The position numbers and the translations under genes are program-made. Of a stretch of DNA of 46,106 nucleotides, positions 1-46,106 are shown piece after piece; position 1 is the stretch's first letter; each line of letters opens with the position of its first letter. Location: the IMG/VR virus record IMGVR_UViG_2939127364_000005; one strand, 5' to 3'. The notes under the pieces were generated by a model. That model made no database searches, was not told where the DNA came from, and was given only the letters and a program-made list of their open reading frames with translations. Source of the DNA: a virus. Its lineage: Duplodnaviria > Heunggongvirae > Uroviricota > Caudoviricetes.

Positions 1-585
1 CTATTCGATAATGGGTACTGTTGGCCATTCAATATCCGGTGCAGTTGATGTATCAACACGGTTCAGCAACACCCGATACTTTTTCCAGGCTTCCAGCAAC
101 AAGGTTTCTTCCTCCGTTGCGATCTCCAGATCCACAGCATCCTGAAGCGGCGCTATATGCTCACTGGCTACCTGCATCAGGCTGTTTTTTGTTTCTTCCG
201 CCTCCCGGATCCGGAACAGTTTTTCTGCTTCCGTATCCTTCACCCAGGCTGTGCCGTTCCACTTCTGATATTCCCCTCCCGGCGATAACCAGGTAACATT
301 TTCCGGTAACGGACCGAGTTCAGAAATAAATAACGCGTCGCCGGAAGCCACGTCATAAACCGTTTTACCCCGATGATCTTCAACGAGATGCCACGATGCC
401 TCATCACTGTTGAAAACAGCCACGAAGCCTGCCGGAATATCTGGCGGTGCAATATCGATACTGTTTGCTGGCAGACCTGTATGAGGCGGAATATATGCGT
501 CACCTTCACCAATAAATTCATTAGTTCCGGCCAGCAGATTATAAATTTTTATGGTCCGTGGTTGTTCACTCATTCTGAATGCCAT
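1..585 (-). CDS. tfa: Tail fibre assembly protein Tfa (194 aa), complete; stop codon at 1-3
   Basis: ORF translation matches lambda Tfa along its length as recalled ([24 protein letters not shown]...); sits immediately downstream of stf as in lambda. Confidence 0.9.
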
Positions 586-4674: not shown

Positions 4675-6808
<2,134 letters not shown>

Positions 6809-29009: not shown

Positions 29010-29085
29010 TGGTGCTGGTTAACGGACTTGAACCGCTACCCATTCGCTTACAAGGCGACTGCTCTACCATTGGAGCTAAACCAGC
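29010..29085 (-). tRNA. tRNA gene (76 nt, CCA encoded); anticodon by manual folding is UGU (Thr)
   Basis: Manual cloverleaf: perfect 7-bp acceptor stem GCTGGTT/AACCAGC, D-arm GCTC-CAATGGTA-GAGC, T-loop TTCAAGT, anticodon loop CTTGTAA; one G-A mismatch at the top of the anticodon stem. Confidence 0.65.
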
Positions 29086-29090
29086 ATATT

Positions 29091-29165
29091 TGGCGGGACA
29101 GCGTGGACTCGAACCACGATAAGAAGGTTAACAGCCTTCCGTAATGACCTTTATGCGACTGACCC
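29091..29165 (-). tRNA. tRNA-like gene (75 nt, CCA encoded) with GUU (Asn) anticodon; may be functional or a pseudo-tRNA
   Basis: Anticodon arm GAAGG-CTGTTAA-CCTTC and T-arm CGTGG-TTCGAGT-CCACG are perfect and resemble E. coli tRNA-Asn loops; acceptor stem has one T-T mismatch and the D-stem pairs poorly. Confidence 0.5.
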
Positions 29166-29228
29166 AAACAAAAAAAGCCACCGTTGCAACTTAAGAGTCA
29201 CTAACGGCAGCTTACCTTCTAATTATGG

Positions 29229-29747
29229 CTAAATGGATAATTGCATGTCAAGGCTTTTAACAGCAACATGCTTAACTTTCTCAACACGTTTACGCATTTT
29301 GAAAGCATTTTGCATTGGCTGGTACAAAACAAATAACGACGCTTTCAGGATGTCGTCAATTTCGTTTCTACAGGTTGCCAGTGAAGGTTTTCTCCATCCC
29401 TCGCCACCACGTCCACACATCTTGCGTGGCTTTGCAGTCGCGTGATAGTAGGATGCAATTGCTCGCTTAGATGAACCATGAGCGTAGTAGCTGAGGAGGA
29501 TGCCAAAGGCTTTTTTGTCAATGCACATGACGGAATCGACGACCTGAGAAATCAACATTCCATCATCATCATTACACATTGGCCTTGTCATAACTCTTCC
29601 CGGCTCTACGCTCTCCATGAACTTAGCTATTACGCTGCTCATGCGCTTTTCCAGACGACCTGAATAAACCCATGCGCCCCACAGTTCAAGCCAGCCATTC
29701 AGCCACTCGTGCTGTTCTTTGGTGAGGTTTAGTTCTCTTATGCCCAT
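29229..29747 (-). CDS. Q: Late antiterminator Q, phage 82/21 (QuuD-like) family; 172 aa from the ATG at 29747 (ORF track begins at a GTG at 29804)
   Basis: Motifs WGAWV...CNDDDGMLISQ...LLSYYAHG resemble the E. coli QuuD / Phage_antitermQ family as recalled; lies between ninG and the lysis genes. Confidence 0.65.
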   Translation of the reverse strand: MGIRELNLTKEQHEWLNGWLELWGAWVYSGRLEKRMSSVIAKFMESVEPGRVMTRPMCNDDDGMLISQVVDSVMCIDKKAFGILLSYYAHGSSKRAIASYYHATAKPRKMCGRGGEGWRKPSLATCRNEIDDILKASLFVLYQPMQNAFKMRKRVEKVKHVAVKSLDMQLSI

Positions 29748-30402: not shown

Positions 30403-30671
30403 TATGGTTCGCTCCAGTAATTCTCAATTGCAGCAGCCATTCTCTGCATCCACTCAGCCAGCTTTAACGCGGCTTCTCTTTCAGAACCACATTTAGGGAA
30501 ATCCTTCATTTCCATGCTGGCCTTATATGTTCTGAATGCTAGGTCTCCGGTAATAACCAGCTCCTGATCAAGCACCGAGCGTTTATTCCGGTGTTGAACG
30601 TAATAGACAGATTCAGTCCGCATTTCTTCTCTGTCTTTTTTGAAGGAAATAAGCTCAGAGAAATCACTCAT
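30402..30671 (-). CDS. Hypothetical nin-region protein (89 aa)
   Basis: ORF tightly packed between ninF and ninG; I recognise no lambda counterpart. Confidence 0.5.
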
Positions 30672-30876
30672 CGTCTTCTTCCTCGTACATTGAGCTATTC
30701 GGATCGCTCATCAGTTCTGCGCAGCAGTGCTCACATACGTGAACTTCCAGCACATGCAGCTTCTGACCGCAGTTAGCGCACGTTAAAGCTCGCTCGACGC
30801 TTTCTTGTTCGTAACTTCGATTTGGGTCAATCACCTTGTATTCCTCGCACGATGTCTTAGCCACCGGATATCCCAC
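30664..30876 (-). CDS. ninF: NinF (start uncertain; the lambda-like part begins near ...[39 protein letters not shown])
   Basis: C-terminal 45 aa match lambda NinF as recalled. Confidence 0.75.
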
Positions 30877-31013
30877 AGGTGAGCCGTGTAATTGAAGGTT
30901 TTTACGTCAGATTCTTTTGGGATTGGCTTGCGTTTATTTCTGGAGCGTTTCGTTGGAAGGTATTTGCAGTTTTCGCAGATGATGTCGGTGAAACTTCGTC
31001 GCTGTCGCCTCAT
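30831..31013 (-). CDS. ninE: NinE (60 aa from [10 protein letters not shown])
   Basis: [51 protein letters not shown] matches lambda NinE as recalled. Confidence 0.85.
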
Positions 31014-31537
31014 GCCGCCCTCCTGACGCCCTGCCCGATCGCTATCAATGCCGCTTTGGATACGGTAGTAAACATCCGTCGAGGACTGATGAACGGTCGC
31101 CAAATCAGCAGCATGGAGCCTTTGCTGTTTCCCTTCTTCTCCAGCCCCGTCGATGGTTCGATAAAATTAATCCGTCCATCAGTGATAATGCGAACTTCGT
31201 CGACACTCTCCAGAGCCTTGCTGAACCATCCGACTGACATATCCTCTGGCACAAGCATCACTACCGTCTGTCGCTGTTGTATGCACTGCTCAGCGGCTTT
31301 TTCCACCCACGGCCTGATATTGCTGTACGGTGGGTTATTCCAGATTGCACCGTGGCTTACCCACTCAGAATTGAGCGCGTCGTCGGCCTCAGTTAGCCAG
31401 TGAGCACACAGAGCATTTTTGTCGCTCGCTGCCGAATCCAGCCAGAATCCAAACTCAATATCCAGTGCATCAAAAAGCCAAAGCGGCGTTTGCCAGCAGT
31501 CCTTGTCGTGTGCTGGCGTATTTGATTTGATAGTCAT
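31010..31537 (-). CDS. Phage-type DNA N6-adenine methyltransferase (about 175 aa); its ATG overlaps the ninB stop (ATGA)
   Basis: NPPY(S) catalytic motif of N6-adenine methyltransferases ([14 protein letters not shown]); occupies the slot where lambda has ninC/ninD. Confidence 0.7.
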
Positions 31538-31974
31538 GCAGCCCGATCTCCCCATCTCGCTTTCCACTCCAGAGCCAGTCTCGCTTCGTCTGACCACTTA
31601 ACGCCACGCTCTGTACCGAATGCCTGTATAAGCTCTAATAGCTCCGCAAATTCGCCTACACGCATCCTGCTGGTTGACTGGCCTATTACCACAAAGCCAT
31701 TCCCGGCAAGGTTAGGAACAACATCCTGCTGCTTTAATGCTGCGGTAAACACACACTTCCAGCTTTCTGCATCCAGCCAGCGACCATGCCATTCAACCTG
31801 ACGAGAGACGTCACCTAAGCAGGCCCATAGCTTCCTGTTTTGGTCTAAGCTGCGGTTGCGTTCCTGAATGGTTACTACGATTGGTTTGGTTGGGTCTGGA
31901 AGGATTTGCTGTACTGCGTGAATAGCGTTTTGCTGATGTGCTGGAGATCGAATTTCAAAGGTTAGTTTTTTCAT
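31534..31974 (-). CDS. ninB: NinB (146 aa from MKKLTFEIRS)
   Basis: Matches lambda NinB as recalled. Confidence 0.9.
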   Translation of the reverse strand: MKKLTFEIRSPAHQQNAIHAVQQILPDPTKPIVVTIQERNRSLDQNRKLWACLGDVSRQVEWHGRWLDAESWKCVFTAALKQQDVVPNLAGNGFVVIGQSTSRMRVGEFAELLELIQAFGTERGVKWSDEARLALEWKARWGDRAA

Positions 31975-32047
31975 GACTTCCCTCTCCCCCAAATAAAAAG
32001 GCCTGCGATTACTAGCAGGCCTGTTATTAGCTCAGTAATGTAGATGG

Positions 32048-34376: not shown

Positions 34377-34515
34377 TTATGCTGTTGTTTTTTTGTTACT
34401 CGGGAAGGGCTTTACCTCTTCCGCATAAACGCTTCCATCAGCGTTTATAGTTAAAAAAATCTTTCGGCCTGCATGAATGGCCTTGTTAATCGCGCTTTGA
34501 TATACGCCGAGATCT
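34377..34515 (-). pseudogene. cro: cro, C-terminal part (codons about 21-66), separated from its start and from PR by IS5
   Basis: ...[46 protein letters not shown] matches lambda Cro as recalled; upstream frame runs into IS5. Confidence 0.85.
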
Positions 34516-34519
34516 TTAG

Positions 34520-35714
<1,195 letters not shown>

Positions 35715-35718
35715 TTAG

Positions 35719-35776
35719 CTGTCTTTGTTTGCCCAAAGCGCATTGCATAATCTTTCAGGGTTATGCGTTGTTCCAT
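35719..35776 (-). pseudogene. cro: cro, N-terminal 19 codons (MEQRITLKDYAMRFGQTKT), still attached to PR
   Basis: Reverse complement reads ATGGAACAACGCATAACCCTGAAAGATTATGCAATGCGCTTTGGGCAAACAAAGACAG, ending at the IS5 target duplication. Confidence 0.85.
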
Positions 35777-36708: not shown

Positions 36709-37614
36709 ATGCCAAATTTACCGATGGGCGGATCGCAGGGTGAATTACCCTTAGTACCTACAGTAGAAGTTGTTGCTGATGGCATTCCTATGGGGGTGCT
36801 TAATGATGGAACCCCTTATCTAACTCTTTACGGTTTAGCCAAATTATGTGGCATAGATGAAGCACCTCTTCGAATGTTTACATCTAACTGGGAGACTGAA
36901 AAAAATAAGCCAAGAGGACAAAAAGTAGCTGCATACTTAGCTGAGAAAGGATTTAACAACGTTGACCGACTGTATACCCGCGTCATAAATAGCTCAAACG
37001 TTGAAACACATGCTTATCCTGACTATGTTTGTATGGCTATCCTCCGTTACTACGCTCTAGATGCCACCAATTTTGATAGGTCAGTCGCAATAGGTAATTT
37101 TGTTCGCTTGGCTGAGTACACGCTTAAGCGAATGATTTATGAAAAGTCAAATTACAACCCAAATGCTTCAATAGATATCTCATTCGAGAACTATAGAGCA
37201 AGGATTAAGCTAAACGATCAGATACCGACAACTCATTTTGCAGTATTCAGAGAGATAGCTGACATTGCCATGAACCTGATCGGAGGAGGATTCCCAATGG
37301 ATGACACCACATCTTTGGATGGAAGTGTTGGAATTCACTGGGGAAAGTATTGGACAGCTAATGGGCTATCTGAGAAATTCGGGGAAAGGGTGCAGTACCC
37401 ACATCTATTCCCCGAAAATTACAGGCAGTCAGCTGCAAATAAGCATATAACAGCTTGGATTTATCCTATTGAGGCACTTGGCGTGTTCAGAAAATGGCTA
37501 CACGATAATTACGCAATGGAAAAACTGCCAAATTACCTTGGGAACAAAAAGATTAGTAATGCCTCCGAGCTATTAGAGTCGATAAAAAAACCAGCACTCC
37601 CAAATAAGCATTGA
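36709..37614 (+). CDS. Uncharacterised 301-aa protein at the rexAB position; N-terminal KilA-N/Bro-N-like motif, C-terminal half unassigned; candidate repressor-linked defence gene (possibly BstA-like)
   Basis: Directly downstream of cI on the same strand; motif GTPYLTLYGLAKLCGI resembles KilA-N/Bro-N DNA-binding domains; no similarity to RexA or RexB as recalled; followed by a strong terminator. Confidence 0.6.
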   Translation: MPNLPMGGSQGELPLVPTVEVVADGIPMGVLNDGTPYLTLYGLAKLCGIDEAPLRMFTSNWETEKNKPRGQKVAAYLAEKGFNNVDRLYTRVINSSNVETHAYPDYVCMAILRYYALDATNFDRSVAIGNFVRLAEYTLKRMIYEKSNYNPNASIDISFENYRARIKLNDQIPTTHFAVFREIADIAMNLIGGGFPMDDTTSLDGSVGIHWGKYWTANGLSEKFGERVQYPHLFPENYRQSAANKHITAWIYPIEALGVFRKWLHDNYAMEKLPNYLGNKKISNASELLESIKKPALPNKH

Positions 37615-38370: not shown

Positions 38371-38922
38371 TTACTTAGATATTGGCCTTGGCTTTATCTC
38401 AATATTATATGGATCATAGCTGGCAACTAATTCAGTCCAGTAAATATCCTCAATAGGGAATAATATATGCTTCCCGTTCCATCGGGAAAAAGTTTTGTTC
38501 AACACACCAAGCTCAATCAACTCACTAATGTATGGGAATTGTTTTGATGTAACCACATACTTCCTGCCTTCATTAAGGGCTGCGCACAAAACCATAGATT
38601 GCTCTTCTGTAAGGTTTTGAATTACTGATCGCACTTTATCGTTTTGCATCTTAATGCGTTTTCTTAGCTTAAATCGCTTATATCTGGCGCTGGCAATAGC
38701 TGATAATCGATGCACATTAATTGCTAGCGAAAATGCAAGAGCAAAGACGAAAACATGCCACACATGAGGAATACCGATTCTCTCATTAACATATTCAGGC
38801 CAGTTATCTGGGCTTAAAAGCAGAAGTCCAACCCAGATAACGATCATATACATGGTTCTCTCCAGAGGTTCATTACTGAACACTCGTCCGAGAATAACGA
38901 GTGGATCCATTTCTATACTCAT
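38371..38922 (-). CDS. sieB: Superinfection exclusion protein SieB (183 aa from MSIEMDPLV)
   Basis: Matches lambda SieB as recalled; convergent with and abutting N. Confidence 0.85.
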   Translation of the reverse strand: MSIEMDPLVILGRVFSNEPLERTMYMIVIWVGLLLLSPDNWPEYVNERIGIPHVWHVFVFALAFSLAINVHRLSAIASARYKRFKLRKRIKMQNDKVRSVIQNLTEEQSMVLCAALNEGRKYVVTSKQFPYISELIELGVLNKTFSRWNGKHILFPIEDIYWTELVASYDPYNIEIKPRPISK

Positions 38923-39049
38923 CAAACTGTAGGGGTTGTAATAGTTTATCCGATTTCTCGCTGTAGGGGTACACGAGAACCACCGAGCCTGATGTGGTTA
39001 AAAGACAGGCACAATCTTTACTACCGCAATCCACTATTTAAGGTGATAT

Positions 39050-39871: not shown

Positions 39872-39943
39872 GTGCGGTTTTACCGCATACCAATAACGCT
39901 TCACTCGAGGCGTTTTTCGTTATGTATAAATAAGGAGCACACC

Positions 39944-40108
39944 ATGCAATATGCCATTGCAGGGTGGCCTGTTGCTGGCTGCCCTTCCGAATCTTTACTT
40001 GAACGAATCACCCGTAAATTACGTGACGGATGGAAACGCCTTATCGACATACTTAATCAGCCAGGAGTCCCAAAGAATGGATCAAACACTTATGGCTATC
40101 CAGACTAA
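39944..40108 (+). CDS. cIII: cIII (54 aa from MQYAIAGWPVAG), FtsH inhibitor
   Basis: [54 protein letters not shown] matches lambda cIII as recalled. Confidence 0.9.
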   Translation: MQYAIAGWPVAGCPSESLLERITRKLRDGWKRLIDILNQPGVPKNGSNTYGYPD

Positions 40109-43421: not shown

Positions 43422-43640
43422 ATGTACTTGACACTTCAGGAGTGGAACGCACGCCAGCGGCGCCCAAGAAGCCTTGAAACAGTTCGTCGATGGGTACGCG
43501 AGTGCAGGATATTCCCACCACCGATTAAGGACGGAAGAGAGTATTTGTTCCACGAATCAGCGGTAAAGGTTGACTTAAATCGACCAGTAACAGGTAGCCT
43601 TTTGAAGAGGATCAAAAATGGGAAGAAGGCGAAGTCATGA
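43422..43640 (+). CDS. xis: Excisionase Xis (72 aa from MYLTLQEWNARQRRPRSLETVRRW)
   Basis: Matches lambda Xis as recalled. Confidence 0.9.
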   Translation: MYLTLQEWNARQRRPRSLETVRRWVRECRIFPPPIKDGREYLFHESAVKVDLNRPVTGSLLKRIKNGKKAKS

Positions 43641-44688
43641 GCGCCGGGATTTACCCCCTAATCTTTATATAAGAAACAATGGATATTACTGCTACAGGGA
43701 CCCAAGGACGGGTAAAGAGTTTGGATTAGGTCGAGACAGGAGGATAGCAATCACTGAAGCTATACAGGCCAACATTGAGTTATTTTCAGGACACAAACAC
43801 AAGCCTCTGACAGCGAGAATCAACAGTGATAATTCTGTTACGTTACATTCATGGCTTGATCGCTACGAAAAAATCCTCGCCAGCAGAGGAATCAAGCAGA
43901 AGACACTCATAAATTACATGAGCAAAATTAAAGCAATAAGGAGGGGGCTGCCTGATGCTCCACTTGAAGACATCACCACAAAAGAAATTGCGGCAATGCT
44001 CAATGGATACATAGACGAGGGCAAGGCGGCGTCAGCCAAGTTAATCAGATCAACACTGAGCGATGCATTCCGAGAGGCAATAGCTGAAGGCCATATAACA
44101 ACAAACCCGGTCGCTGCCACTCGCGCAGCAAAATCAGAGGTAAGGAGATCAAGACTTACAGCTGATGAATACCTGAAAATTTATCAAGCAGCAGAATCAT
44201 CACCATGTTGGCTTAGACTTGCAATGGAATTGGCTGTTGTTACCGGGCAGCGAGTTGGTGATTTATGCGAAATGAAGTGGTCTGATATCGTAGATGGATA
44301 TCTTTATGTCGAGCAAAGCAAAACAGGCGTAAAAATTGCCATCCCAACAACATTGCATGTTGATGTTCTCGGGATATCAATGAAGGAAACACTTGATAAA
44401 TGCAAAAAGATTCTTGGCGGAGAAACCATAATTGCATCTACTCGTCGTGAACCGCTTTCATCCGGCACAGTATCAAGGTATTTTATGCGCGCACGAAAAG
44501 CATCAGGTCTTTCCTTCGAAGGGGATCCGCCTACCTTTCACGAGTTGCGCAGTTTGTCTGCAAGACTCTATGAGAAGCAGATAAGCGATAAGTTTGCTCA
44601 ACATCTTCTCGGGCATAAGTCGGACACCATGGCATCACAGTATCGTGATGACAGAGGCAGGGAGTGGGACAAAATTGAAATCAAATAA
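43618..44688 (+). CDS. int: Integrase Int (356 aa, tyrosine recombinase)
   Basis: MGRRRSHERRDLPPNLYIRNNGYYCYRDPRTGKEFGLGRDRRIAITEAIQ... matches lambda Int as recalled. Confidence 0.9.
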   Translation: MGRRRSHERRDLPPNLYIRNNGYYCYRDPRTGKEFGLGRDRRIAITEAIQANIELFSGHKHKPLTARINSDNSVTLHSWLDRYEKILASRGIKQKTLINYMSKIKAIRRGLPDAPLEDITTKEIAAMLNGYIDEGKAASAKLIRSTLSDAFREAIAEGHITTNPVAATRAAKSEVRRSRLTADEYLKIYQAAESSPCWLRLAMELAVVTGQRVGDLCEMKWSDIVDGYLYVEQSKTGVKIAIPTTLHVDVLGISMKETLDKCKKILGGETIIASTRREPLSSGTVSRYFMRARKASGLSFEGDPPTFHELRSLSARLYEKQISDKFAQHLLGHKSDTMASQYRDDRGREWDKIEIK

Positions 44689-44822: not shown

Positions 44823-46106
44823 GTGAACACATTTTCAGTTTCCCGTCTGGCGCTGGCATTGGCTTTTGGCGTGACGCTGACCGCCTGTAGCTCAACCCCG
44901 CCCGATCAACGTCCTTCTGATCAAACCGCGCCTGGTACCTCTTCTCGCCCGATTCTGTCGGCAAAAGAAGCGCAGAATTTCGATGCTCAACACTATTTTG
45001 CATCCCTGACACCAGGTGCTGCAGCGTGGAATCCTTCCCCGATTACCCTGCCTGCGCAACCTGACTTTGTTGTCGGCCCGGCGGGCACTCAAGGTGTAAC
45101 GCATACCACGATTCAGGCGGCGGTAGATGCGGCAATTATCAAGCGTACCAACAAGCGCCAGTATATTGCCGTGATGCCTGGTGAGTATCAGGGAACGGTA
45201 TATGTCCCTGCCGCTCCGGGTGGAATTACTCTGTACGGTACAGGTGAAAAACCGATTGATGTGAAGATTGGGCTTTCCCTTGATGGTGGCATGAGCCCTG
45301 CCGACTGGCGTCACGACGTCAACCCGCGCGGCAAATATATGCCAGGTAAACCAGCGTGGTATATGTACGATAGCTGCCAGAGCAAACGCAGCGACAGTAT
45401 CGGTGTTCTCTGCTCTGCGGTCTTCTGGTCACAAAACAATGGCCTGCAACTGCAAAATCTGACCATCGAAAACACGCTGGGCGATAGCGTAGATGCAGGT
45501 AACCATCCGGCGGTGGCACTGCGTACTGATGGTGACCAGGTACAGATTAACAACGTTAACATTCTCGGTCGTCAGAACACCTTCTTTGTCACCAACAGCG
45601 GTGTGCAGAACCGTCTGGAAACGAATCGTCAGCCGCGTACGCTGGTGACCAACAGCTACATTGAAGGGGATGTGGATATCGTTTCTGGTCGCGGCGCAGT
45701 GGTGTTCGATAACACCGAATTCCGCGTGGTGAACTCACGTACTCAGCAAGAAGCGTATGTGTTTGCACCGGCTACGCTGTCCAACATTTACTACGGTTTC
45801 CTCGCCGTAAACAGCCGTTTCAATGCTTTCGGTGATGGTGTGGCGCAACTGGGCCGCTCGCTGGATGTTGATGCCAATACCAACGGTCAGGTGGTGATCC
45901 GTGATAGCGCCATCAACGAAGGTTTTAACACGGCTAAACCGTGGGCCGATGCGGTGATCTCTAATCGTCCGTTTGCGGGTAATACCGGCAGCGTAGATGA
46001 TAACGACGAAATACAGCGCAATCTGAATGACACTAACTACAACCGCATGTGGGAATACAATAACCGCGGCGTGGGTAGTAAAGTGGTTGCAGAGGCGAAG
46101 AAGTAA
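44823..46106 (+). CDS. ybhC: Host gene: YbhC, pectinesterase-family outer-membrane lipoprotein (427 aa, GTG start, lipobox LTAC)
   Basis: Matches E. coli YbhC as recalled; ybhC flanks att-lambda in E. coli. Confidence 0.85.
   Translation: MNTFSVSRLALALAFGVTLTACSSTPPDQRPSDQTAPGTSSRPILSAKEAQNFDAQHYFASLTPGAAAWNPSPITLPAQPDFVVGPAGTQGVTHTTIQAAVDAAIIKRTNKRQYIAVMPGEYQGTVYVPAAPGGITLYGTGEKPIDVKIGLSLDGGMSPADWRHDVNPRGKYMPGKPAWYMYDSCQSKRSDSIGVLCSAVFWSQNNGLQLQNLTIENTLGDSVDAGNHPAVALRTDGDQVQINNVNILGRQNTFFVTNSGVQNRLETNRQPRTLVTNSYIEGDVDIVSGRGAVVFDNTEFRVVNSRTQQEAYVFAPATLSNIYYGFLAVNSRFNAFGDGVAQLGRSLDVDANTNGQVVIRDSAINEGFNTAKPWADAVISNRPFAGNTGSVDDNDEIQRNLNDTNYNRMWEYNNRGVGSKVVAEAKK

Follow-up and report, generated by a model that had tools for sequence, protein, structure and literature searches.

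The nin region of this lambdoid prophage encodes an intact orphan phage Dam that is already annotated and belongs to the PF05869 family. The gene lies in a window of 46,106 nucleotides (the whole stretch of viral DNA that was analysed, IMG/VR record IMGVR_UViG_2939127364_000005; all coordinates refer to it), and its 175-residue product is highly likely to be an orphan S-adenosylmethionine (SAM)-dependent N6-adenine methyltransferase of GATC sites that is made as a delayed-early protein and tops up the methylation of the phage DNA. The features that carry the argument are the following.

31010..31537, minus strand: coding sequence of the 175-aa orphan phage N6-adenine DNA methyltransferase (PF05869 / TIGR01712), from the ORF list and profiles
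31534..31537, minus strand: ATGA in which the ninB stop (TGA) overlaps the methyltransferase start (ATG), read directly from the sequence
31010..31013, minus strand: ATGA in which the methyltransferase stop overlaps the ninE start, read directly from the sequence
31019..31024, minus strand: AGGAGG Shine-Dalgarno element for ninE, inside the 3' end of the methyltransferase gene
31325..31336, minus strand: codons for NPPY (residues 68-71), catalytic motif IV, from the alignments
31424..31441, minus strand: codons for L-D-S-A-A-S (residues 33-38), motif-I-like, from the alignments and the predicted strand
31534..31974, minus strand: ninB, Orf-family recombination mediator, the upstream gene of the same operon, from its ATG start
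30831..31013, minus strand: ninE, 60 aa, the downstream gene of the same operon (PF05322, 1.3e-42)
31999..32022, minus strand: intrinsic-terminator-like hairpin with T-run between ren and ninB, assigned by its position relative to lambda
34521..35715, plus strand (transposase): IS5, 1195 bp, inserted in cro and not part of the methyltransferase gene
34377..34520 and 35716..35776, minus strand: remnants of cro flanking IS5

Both the ORF list and the raw sequence place the methyltransferase gene on the minus strand, with its ATG at 31537-31535 and its TGA at 31012-31010, and translation yields 175 amino acids (MTIKSNTP...GVRRAA). The first-pass annotation had described a 175-aa ORF with an NPPY motif at this place, leaving out the strand, and the motif is indeed present as residues 68-71. 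Two other ways of reading the region were considered and rejected. An in-frame GTG start at 31597 would give a 195-aa product whose extra 20 residues lie outside the family profile and overlap ninB; the homologues and the RefSeq annotation use the 175-aa form. On the opposite strand, a 174-aa antisense ORF (30879..31403, plus) has no credible family match.

The gene is tightly packed between its neighbours. At its 5' end the start codon shares an ATGA with the ninB stop, as had been noted before, and a GGGGAG Shine-Dalgarno-like element lies within ninB, 10 nt 5' of the start junction. A single GATC (31545) is found in this ribosome-binding region. At the 3' end a second ATGA, which had gone unmentioned, joins the methyltransferase gene to ninE. 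The coupling to ninB is not peculiar to the methyltransferase gene: the ninB/ninC junction of lambda has the same ATGA, so that the coupling is inherited from the end of ninB.

Lambda carries the order ninB-ninC-ninD-ninE at the same place. In junction alignments, near-identity to lambda runs through ninB including the ATGA, is abruptly lost, and is regained at about codon 3 of ninE. The methyltransferase gene thus precisely replaces ninC-ninD in a clean cassette swap, in agreement with the slot originally proposed for it. The flanking frames are clear members of their families by Pfam profiles (NinB matches PF05772 at 2.3e-54), and NinE is followed by NinF, an 89-aa ORF, NinG and the Q antiterminator. 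The 89-aa ORF between NinF and NinG (30405..30671, minus) has no Pfam match; it goes by 'NinX' or 'DUF2591 family' in the records of some related phages, and RefSeq calls it a 'hypothetical protein'. Among the neighbours (ninB, ninE, then NinF and NinG) no cognate restriction endonuclease gene was found beside the methyltransferase gene; the enzyme is an orphan and not part of a Type II restriction-modification system.

The family assignment rests on full-length profile matches. Against PF05869 ('DNA N-6-adenine-methyltransferase (Dam)') the protein scores 217.1 bits (1.6e-64; cut-off 28.1) over residues 4-169 of 175 and profile positions 1-167 of 169, and against the NCBIfam equivalog TIGR01712 ('phage N-6-adenine-methyltransferase') it scores 264.3 bits (3.1e-79; cut-off 97.05) over profile positions 1-165 of 165. 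With such a distance from both curated cut-offs the methyltransferase call is far beyond chance, and the original proposal of a phage N6-adenine methyltransferase is upheld. The protein also matches phrog_111 ('DNA methyltransferase'), its best PADLOC model is 'oMTase' (orphan methyltransferase), and its size agrees with that of the family (175 aa in a single domain, with homologues of 172-237 aa). As a gene it is known and ordinary, being routinely annotated as RefSeq WP_000153277.1.

The term 'Dam-type', also used by the first-pass annotation, is apt for the function but not for homology at the family level: Pfam gives PF05869 only, and the protein does not belong with E. coli and T4 Dam (alpha-class, MethyltransfD12), in which FxGxG is followed by a target-recognition domain and DPPY. 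Neither did the protein give a Pfam match to MT-A70, its motif being NPPY and not DPPW.

Invariant positions were taken from two alignments, one of 48 homologues and a second that included the T1, HP1 and VT2 proteins. They comprise T17, P18, L33, D34, A37, N41, W59, N68-P-P-Y-S72, D99, S101, W104, F105, E114, R122, F125, N137 and K139, and every one of them is kept in the window protein. The catalytic stretch N68-P69-P70-Y71-S72 is invariant in the 48 homologues as well as in phage T1 Dam and the HP1 methyltransferase. The canonical FxGxG is not present in the sequence. Its place as SAM-binding loop is taken by a motif-I-like L-D-x-A-A element (residues 33-37, on a predicted strand at 31-36), which is common to T1 Dam and the HP1 methyltransferase and whose L33, D34 and A37 are invariant family-wide, T1 and HP1 included. 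It is similar to motif I of the gamma class (M.TaqI, for instance), which reads (E/D)P-A-C.

AlphaFold2 returned a confident single-domain model (pLDDT 87.5, pTM 0.86) with elements from H19-29 through H161-174. The predicted fold is a minimal class I Rossmann adenine-N6 methyltransferase core with a gamma-like motif order, and its nearest structural neighbours are PCIF1 and the DNA adenine methyltransferase M.TaqI. Foldseek matches to METTL3/14 were insignificant. The first-pass annotation had wanted its call judged by the presence of a SAM-binding motif, and an equivalent of motif I was found in L-D-x-A-A, together with a predicted SAM-dependent Rossmann fold of class I. In the model no target-recognition domain stands apart from the 175-aa core, a point that counts against GATC recognition. 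Searching the PDB by sequence gave no relative of the protein (best E 0.24), and the PF05869 family is without a solved structure.

Comparison with named enzymes delimits the family. Dam of phage T1 (M.EcoT1Dam, 33% identity) and the methyltransferase of Haemophilus phage HP1 ('DNA methyltransferase', orf13, 36% identity) belong to the same PF05869 family, are likewise small and devoid of a target-recognition domain, and share with the window protein an N-terminal NTP..D.W.TP, L-D-x-A-A, NPPYS, ML.P.D.S..WF, R..F and N.KG. T1 Dam is longer (237 aa): relative to the window protein it is extended by 44 residues at the N-terminus and has 14 residues inserted. The genomic contexts also differ, T1 being virulent and HP1 P2-like. 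Dam of E. coli and T4 stands apart: in the window protein no target-recognition domain is inserted, NPPY takes the place of DPPY, and motif I is degenerate. The GATC specificity that it very probably shares with these enzymes is a matter of convergence, not of orthology. M.TaqI, M.BseCI, CamA, type I HsdM and the catalytic domain of PCIF1/CAPAM show 14-17% sequence identity to the window protein; the gamma-class enzymes and PCIF1/CAPAM have 380-550 aa and include large domains for the recognition of DNA or RNA; the window protein is the bare core.

The first-pass annotation had considered the target specificity unknown, which proved too cautious. The protein is identical at 174 of 175 positions to orf32 of the Stx2 phage VT2-Sakai (NP_050531). 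The one difference, I165 here and M in VT2, is conservative and falls in the non-conserved C-terminal helix; the two proteins have equal length, and both genes are flanked by ninB and ninE and overlap them in the same way. Orf32 is the only methyltransferase annotated in VT2-Sakai (orf4 of that phage is a DUF551 protein and not a methyltransferase), from which we infer that it is M.EcoVT2Dam. A passage of the O111 STEC methylome report describes M.EcoVT2Dam of prophage VT2-Sa as 'known to target 5'-GATC-3'' and cites Radlinska & Bujnicki 2001 for this target (PMC6602927). As far as that passage and the sequence identity carry, the enzyme very probably methylates the adenine of GATC, the site of the host Dam, with slight doubt left about its strictness. 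In E. coli, such an enzyme would add to existing methylation and create no new mark, since the host already methylates GATC.

The gene is widespread. A megablast search found it in 1565 of 5426 complete E. coli genomes (~29%), always at an identity of at least 95%, and RefSeq labels it there as 'phage N-6-adenine-methyltransferase' between NinB and NinE. Its DNA is 100% identical to the WP_000153277.1 gene of strain LHM10-1, whose prophage sits at the same ybhC-side lambda attachment site. Copies identical to orf32 are carried by Phi24B, Min27 and Stx2-converting phage II, and HK97 has one at 99%. The ninB-dam-ninE block as a whole is 97-99% identical in 434, HK140, mEp043, SfI and Lahn3, as it is in numerous lambda-like isolates and in numerous Stx1/Stx2-converting phages. 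Homologues at a greater distance (60-80% identity) are encoded by Pectobacterium and Providencia prophages, again in the slot that follows the replication genes and precedes Q. The prophage itself is, in comparison with VT2-Sakai, a mosaic with lambda immunity and without stx, inserted beside ybhC at the lambda attachment site. The same mosaic was found in no complete E. coli genome of the set, where the best match covers 75% of the right-hand 20 kb.

As to expression, the hairpin between ren and ninB sits at the place of tR2 in lambda. With a tR2-like terminator upstream of ninB, the nin genes including the methyltransferase gene would need N antitermination and would be delayed-early. The enzyme would be transcribed from pR, past this terminator, and translated within the ninB-dam-ninE unit, whose stop and start codons overlap on both sides of the gene; in the lysogen it would be expected to be silent. 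The dam gene of Phi24B, 100% identical to that of VT2, changes its expression significantly on prophage induction (PMC3342100).

Once made, the protein would transfer the methyl group from SAM to the N6 of adenine by means of its Rossmann core, in which L-D-x-A-A would be followed by NPPY as the adenine-binding catalytic motif. In this way the GATC sites of fast-replicating phage DNA could stay fully methylated where host Dam is scarce or missing. The progeny DNA might then resist restriction enzymes that cut unmethylated GATC, growth might be allowed in Dam-deficient hosts, and the phage DNA would not be treated as hemimethylated or unmethylated by host systems that read GATC. Topping up methylation and protecting against restriction are suggested benefits, against which it counts that lambda does without the gene. 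The window holds 128 GATC sites where trinucleotide frequencies predict 221 (observed/expected 0.58), a depletion measured for this prophage alone and uninformative on the enzyme. Among 4-bp palindromes of the whole window, GATC is the second most depleted, after CTAG.

Whether the gene still serves the prophage in its present state is a separate matter. The immunity region is of the lambda type (with IS5 removed, cI-OR-cro-nutR is 98% identical to lambda), and IS5, bounded by the inverted repeats GGAAGGTGCGAA(C/T)AAG and a 4-bp TTAG target duplication, interrupts it between pR and nutR-cII-O-P-ren-tR2-ninB-methyltransferase, truncating Cro at about codon 20. This separation of pR from the operon makes expression of the methyltransferase after induction uncertain here; IS5 is likely to affect it, and the prophage is probably either defective or hampered in its lytic growth. 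One could therefore propose that the gene is an intact passenger that, its pR operon cut by cro::IS5, has no useful expression and no current function. For this speak the position of the 1195-bp element and its TTAG duplication within cro, on the pR side of nutR, cII, O, P, ren, tR2 and ninB, and the shortening of Cro; yet the ORF is undamaged, every residue invariant in the family is preserved, IS5 may have inserted recently, and read-through from pR is conceivable. We regard a gene without present function as possible but on the unlikely side. The proposal concerns expression and is compatible with the identity of the product as a GATC methyltransferase.

Turning to the specificity of that GATC methyltransferase, the enzyme might instead be relaxed or not directed at GATC, methylating adenines in many contexts for broad anti-restriction, as M.EcoGII and Hia5 do. 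The protein has only 175 aa and no target-recognition domain. A relative of T1 Dam, M.Btr190III, was cloned and methylates GATC with significant off-target activity (PMC4996451), and prophage methyltransferases that are silent in the lysogen can prove non-specific (PMC5778455). Digestion with DpnI/MboI, as in classical cloning assays, probes no site other than GATC, and Dam-like enzymes made in excess can methylate off-target sites (PMC10810198; PMC4996451). Set against this are the VT2-Sakai protein that differs by one residue and, taken as M.EcoVT2Dam, is GATC-specific according to the methylome passage quoted above, and the finding that DNA of T1-type phages carries GATC methylation (PMC11447400). 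The known non-specific enzymes, moreover, belong to other classes (M.EcoGII to the beta class, Hia5 to the alpha class), both with FxGxG and DPPY. A relaxed or different specificity strikes us as improbable.

Broader still is the idea that the enzyme is not a strict GATC methyltransferase in vivo, either through relaxed or different specificity or through a preference for single-stranded DNA or RNA. We give it a very low probability; if true, a broad anti-restriction or regulatory factor would have been mis-filed as a redundant Dam. That the physiological substrate is RNA or a single-stranded nucleic acid rather than duplex DNA, as the PCIF1 resemblance of the predicted fold and the precedent of an unrelated MT-A70 'DNA adenine methyltransferase' of an Stx prophage might suggest, seems to us extremely improbable.

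Several other adenine methyltransferases of E. coli prophages resemble the nin-region GATC methyltransferase in being orphans: M.EcoGV and M.EcoPA8orf6770P (MT-A70, DPPW), and M.EcoGI and M.EcoGII (beta-class, non-specific). These other enzymes reside in prophages, lambdoid or cryptic, and have little or no expression in the lysogen. The M.EcoGV type and M.EcoGI/M.EcoGII differ from the nin-region enzyme in their family and size, in the order of their motifs, in where they lie in the prophage and in what they methylate. M.EcoGV has been listed as a second 'Dam homolog' on Stx2 prophages (PMC6602927). It is highly similar to the MT-A70 enzyme M.EcoPA8orf6770P (Gong et al., PMC10810198), and is therefore a different gene from the one described here. 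Hia5/Hin1523 and M.EcoGII were rejected as relatives, being alpha-class and beta-class enzymes with FxGxG and DPPY and members of other families. The 16S rRNA methyltransferase of Stx phage phiPA8 (PMC10810198) was likewise set aside, as it is an MT-A70/DPPW protein (gp5) that needs the partner PNB-2.

Other features of the prophage are given here as observations in their own right. The integrase gene (43618..44688, plus) is followed by the host gene ybhC (44823..46106, plus), which places the prophage at the attachment site classically used by lambda. Immediately after cI, at the place of rexAB in lambda, a 301-aa protein (36709..37614, plus) matches the PADLOC model of BstA (abortive-infection anti-phage defence) at 3.6e-106 and has no Pfam match. 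Two tRNA genes, tRNA-Thr(TGT) and tRNA-Asn(GTT), lie at 29010..29165 (minus) between the holin gene and the Q antiterminator with its pR'-like promoter (TTGACA-18-CATAAT at 29251..29222). Stx phages have tRNAs and stx at this position; here there is no toxin gene. The SieB superinfection-exclusion protein (38371..38925, minus; PF14163, 1e-29), which adjoins N, and the Rfam Lambda cIII thermoregulator element (39931..39989, plus; 88.5 bits) are ordinary features of a lambda left arm. At the tail / tail-fibre end, two Rfam small RNAs were detected, IS009 at 44..242 (minus; 221.7 bits) and isrC at 5627..5749 (plus; 150.4 bits).
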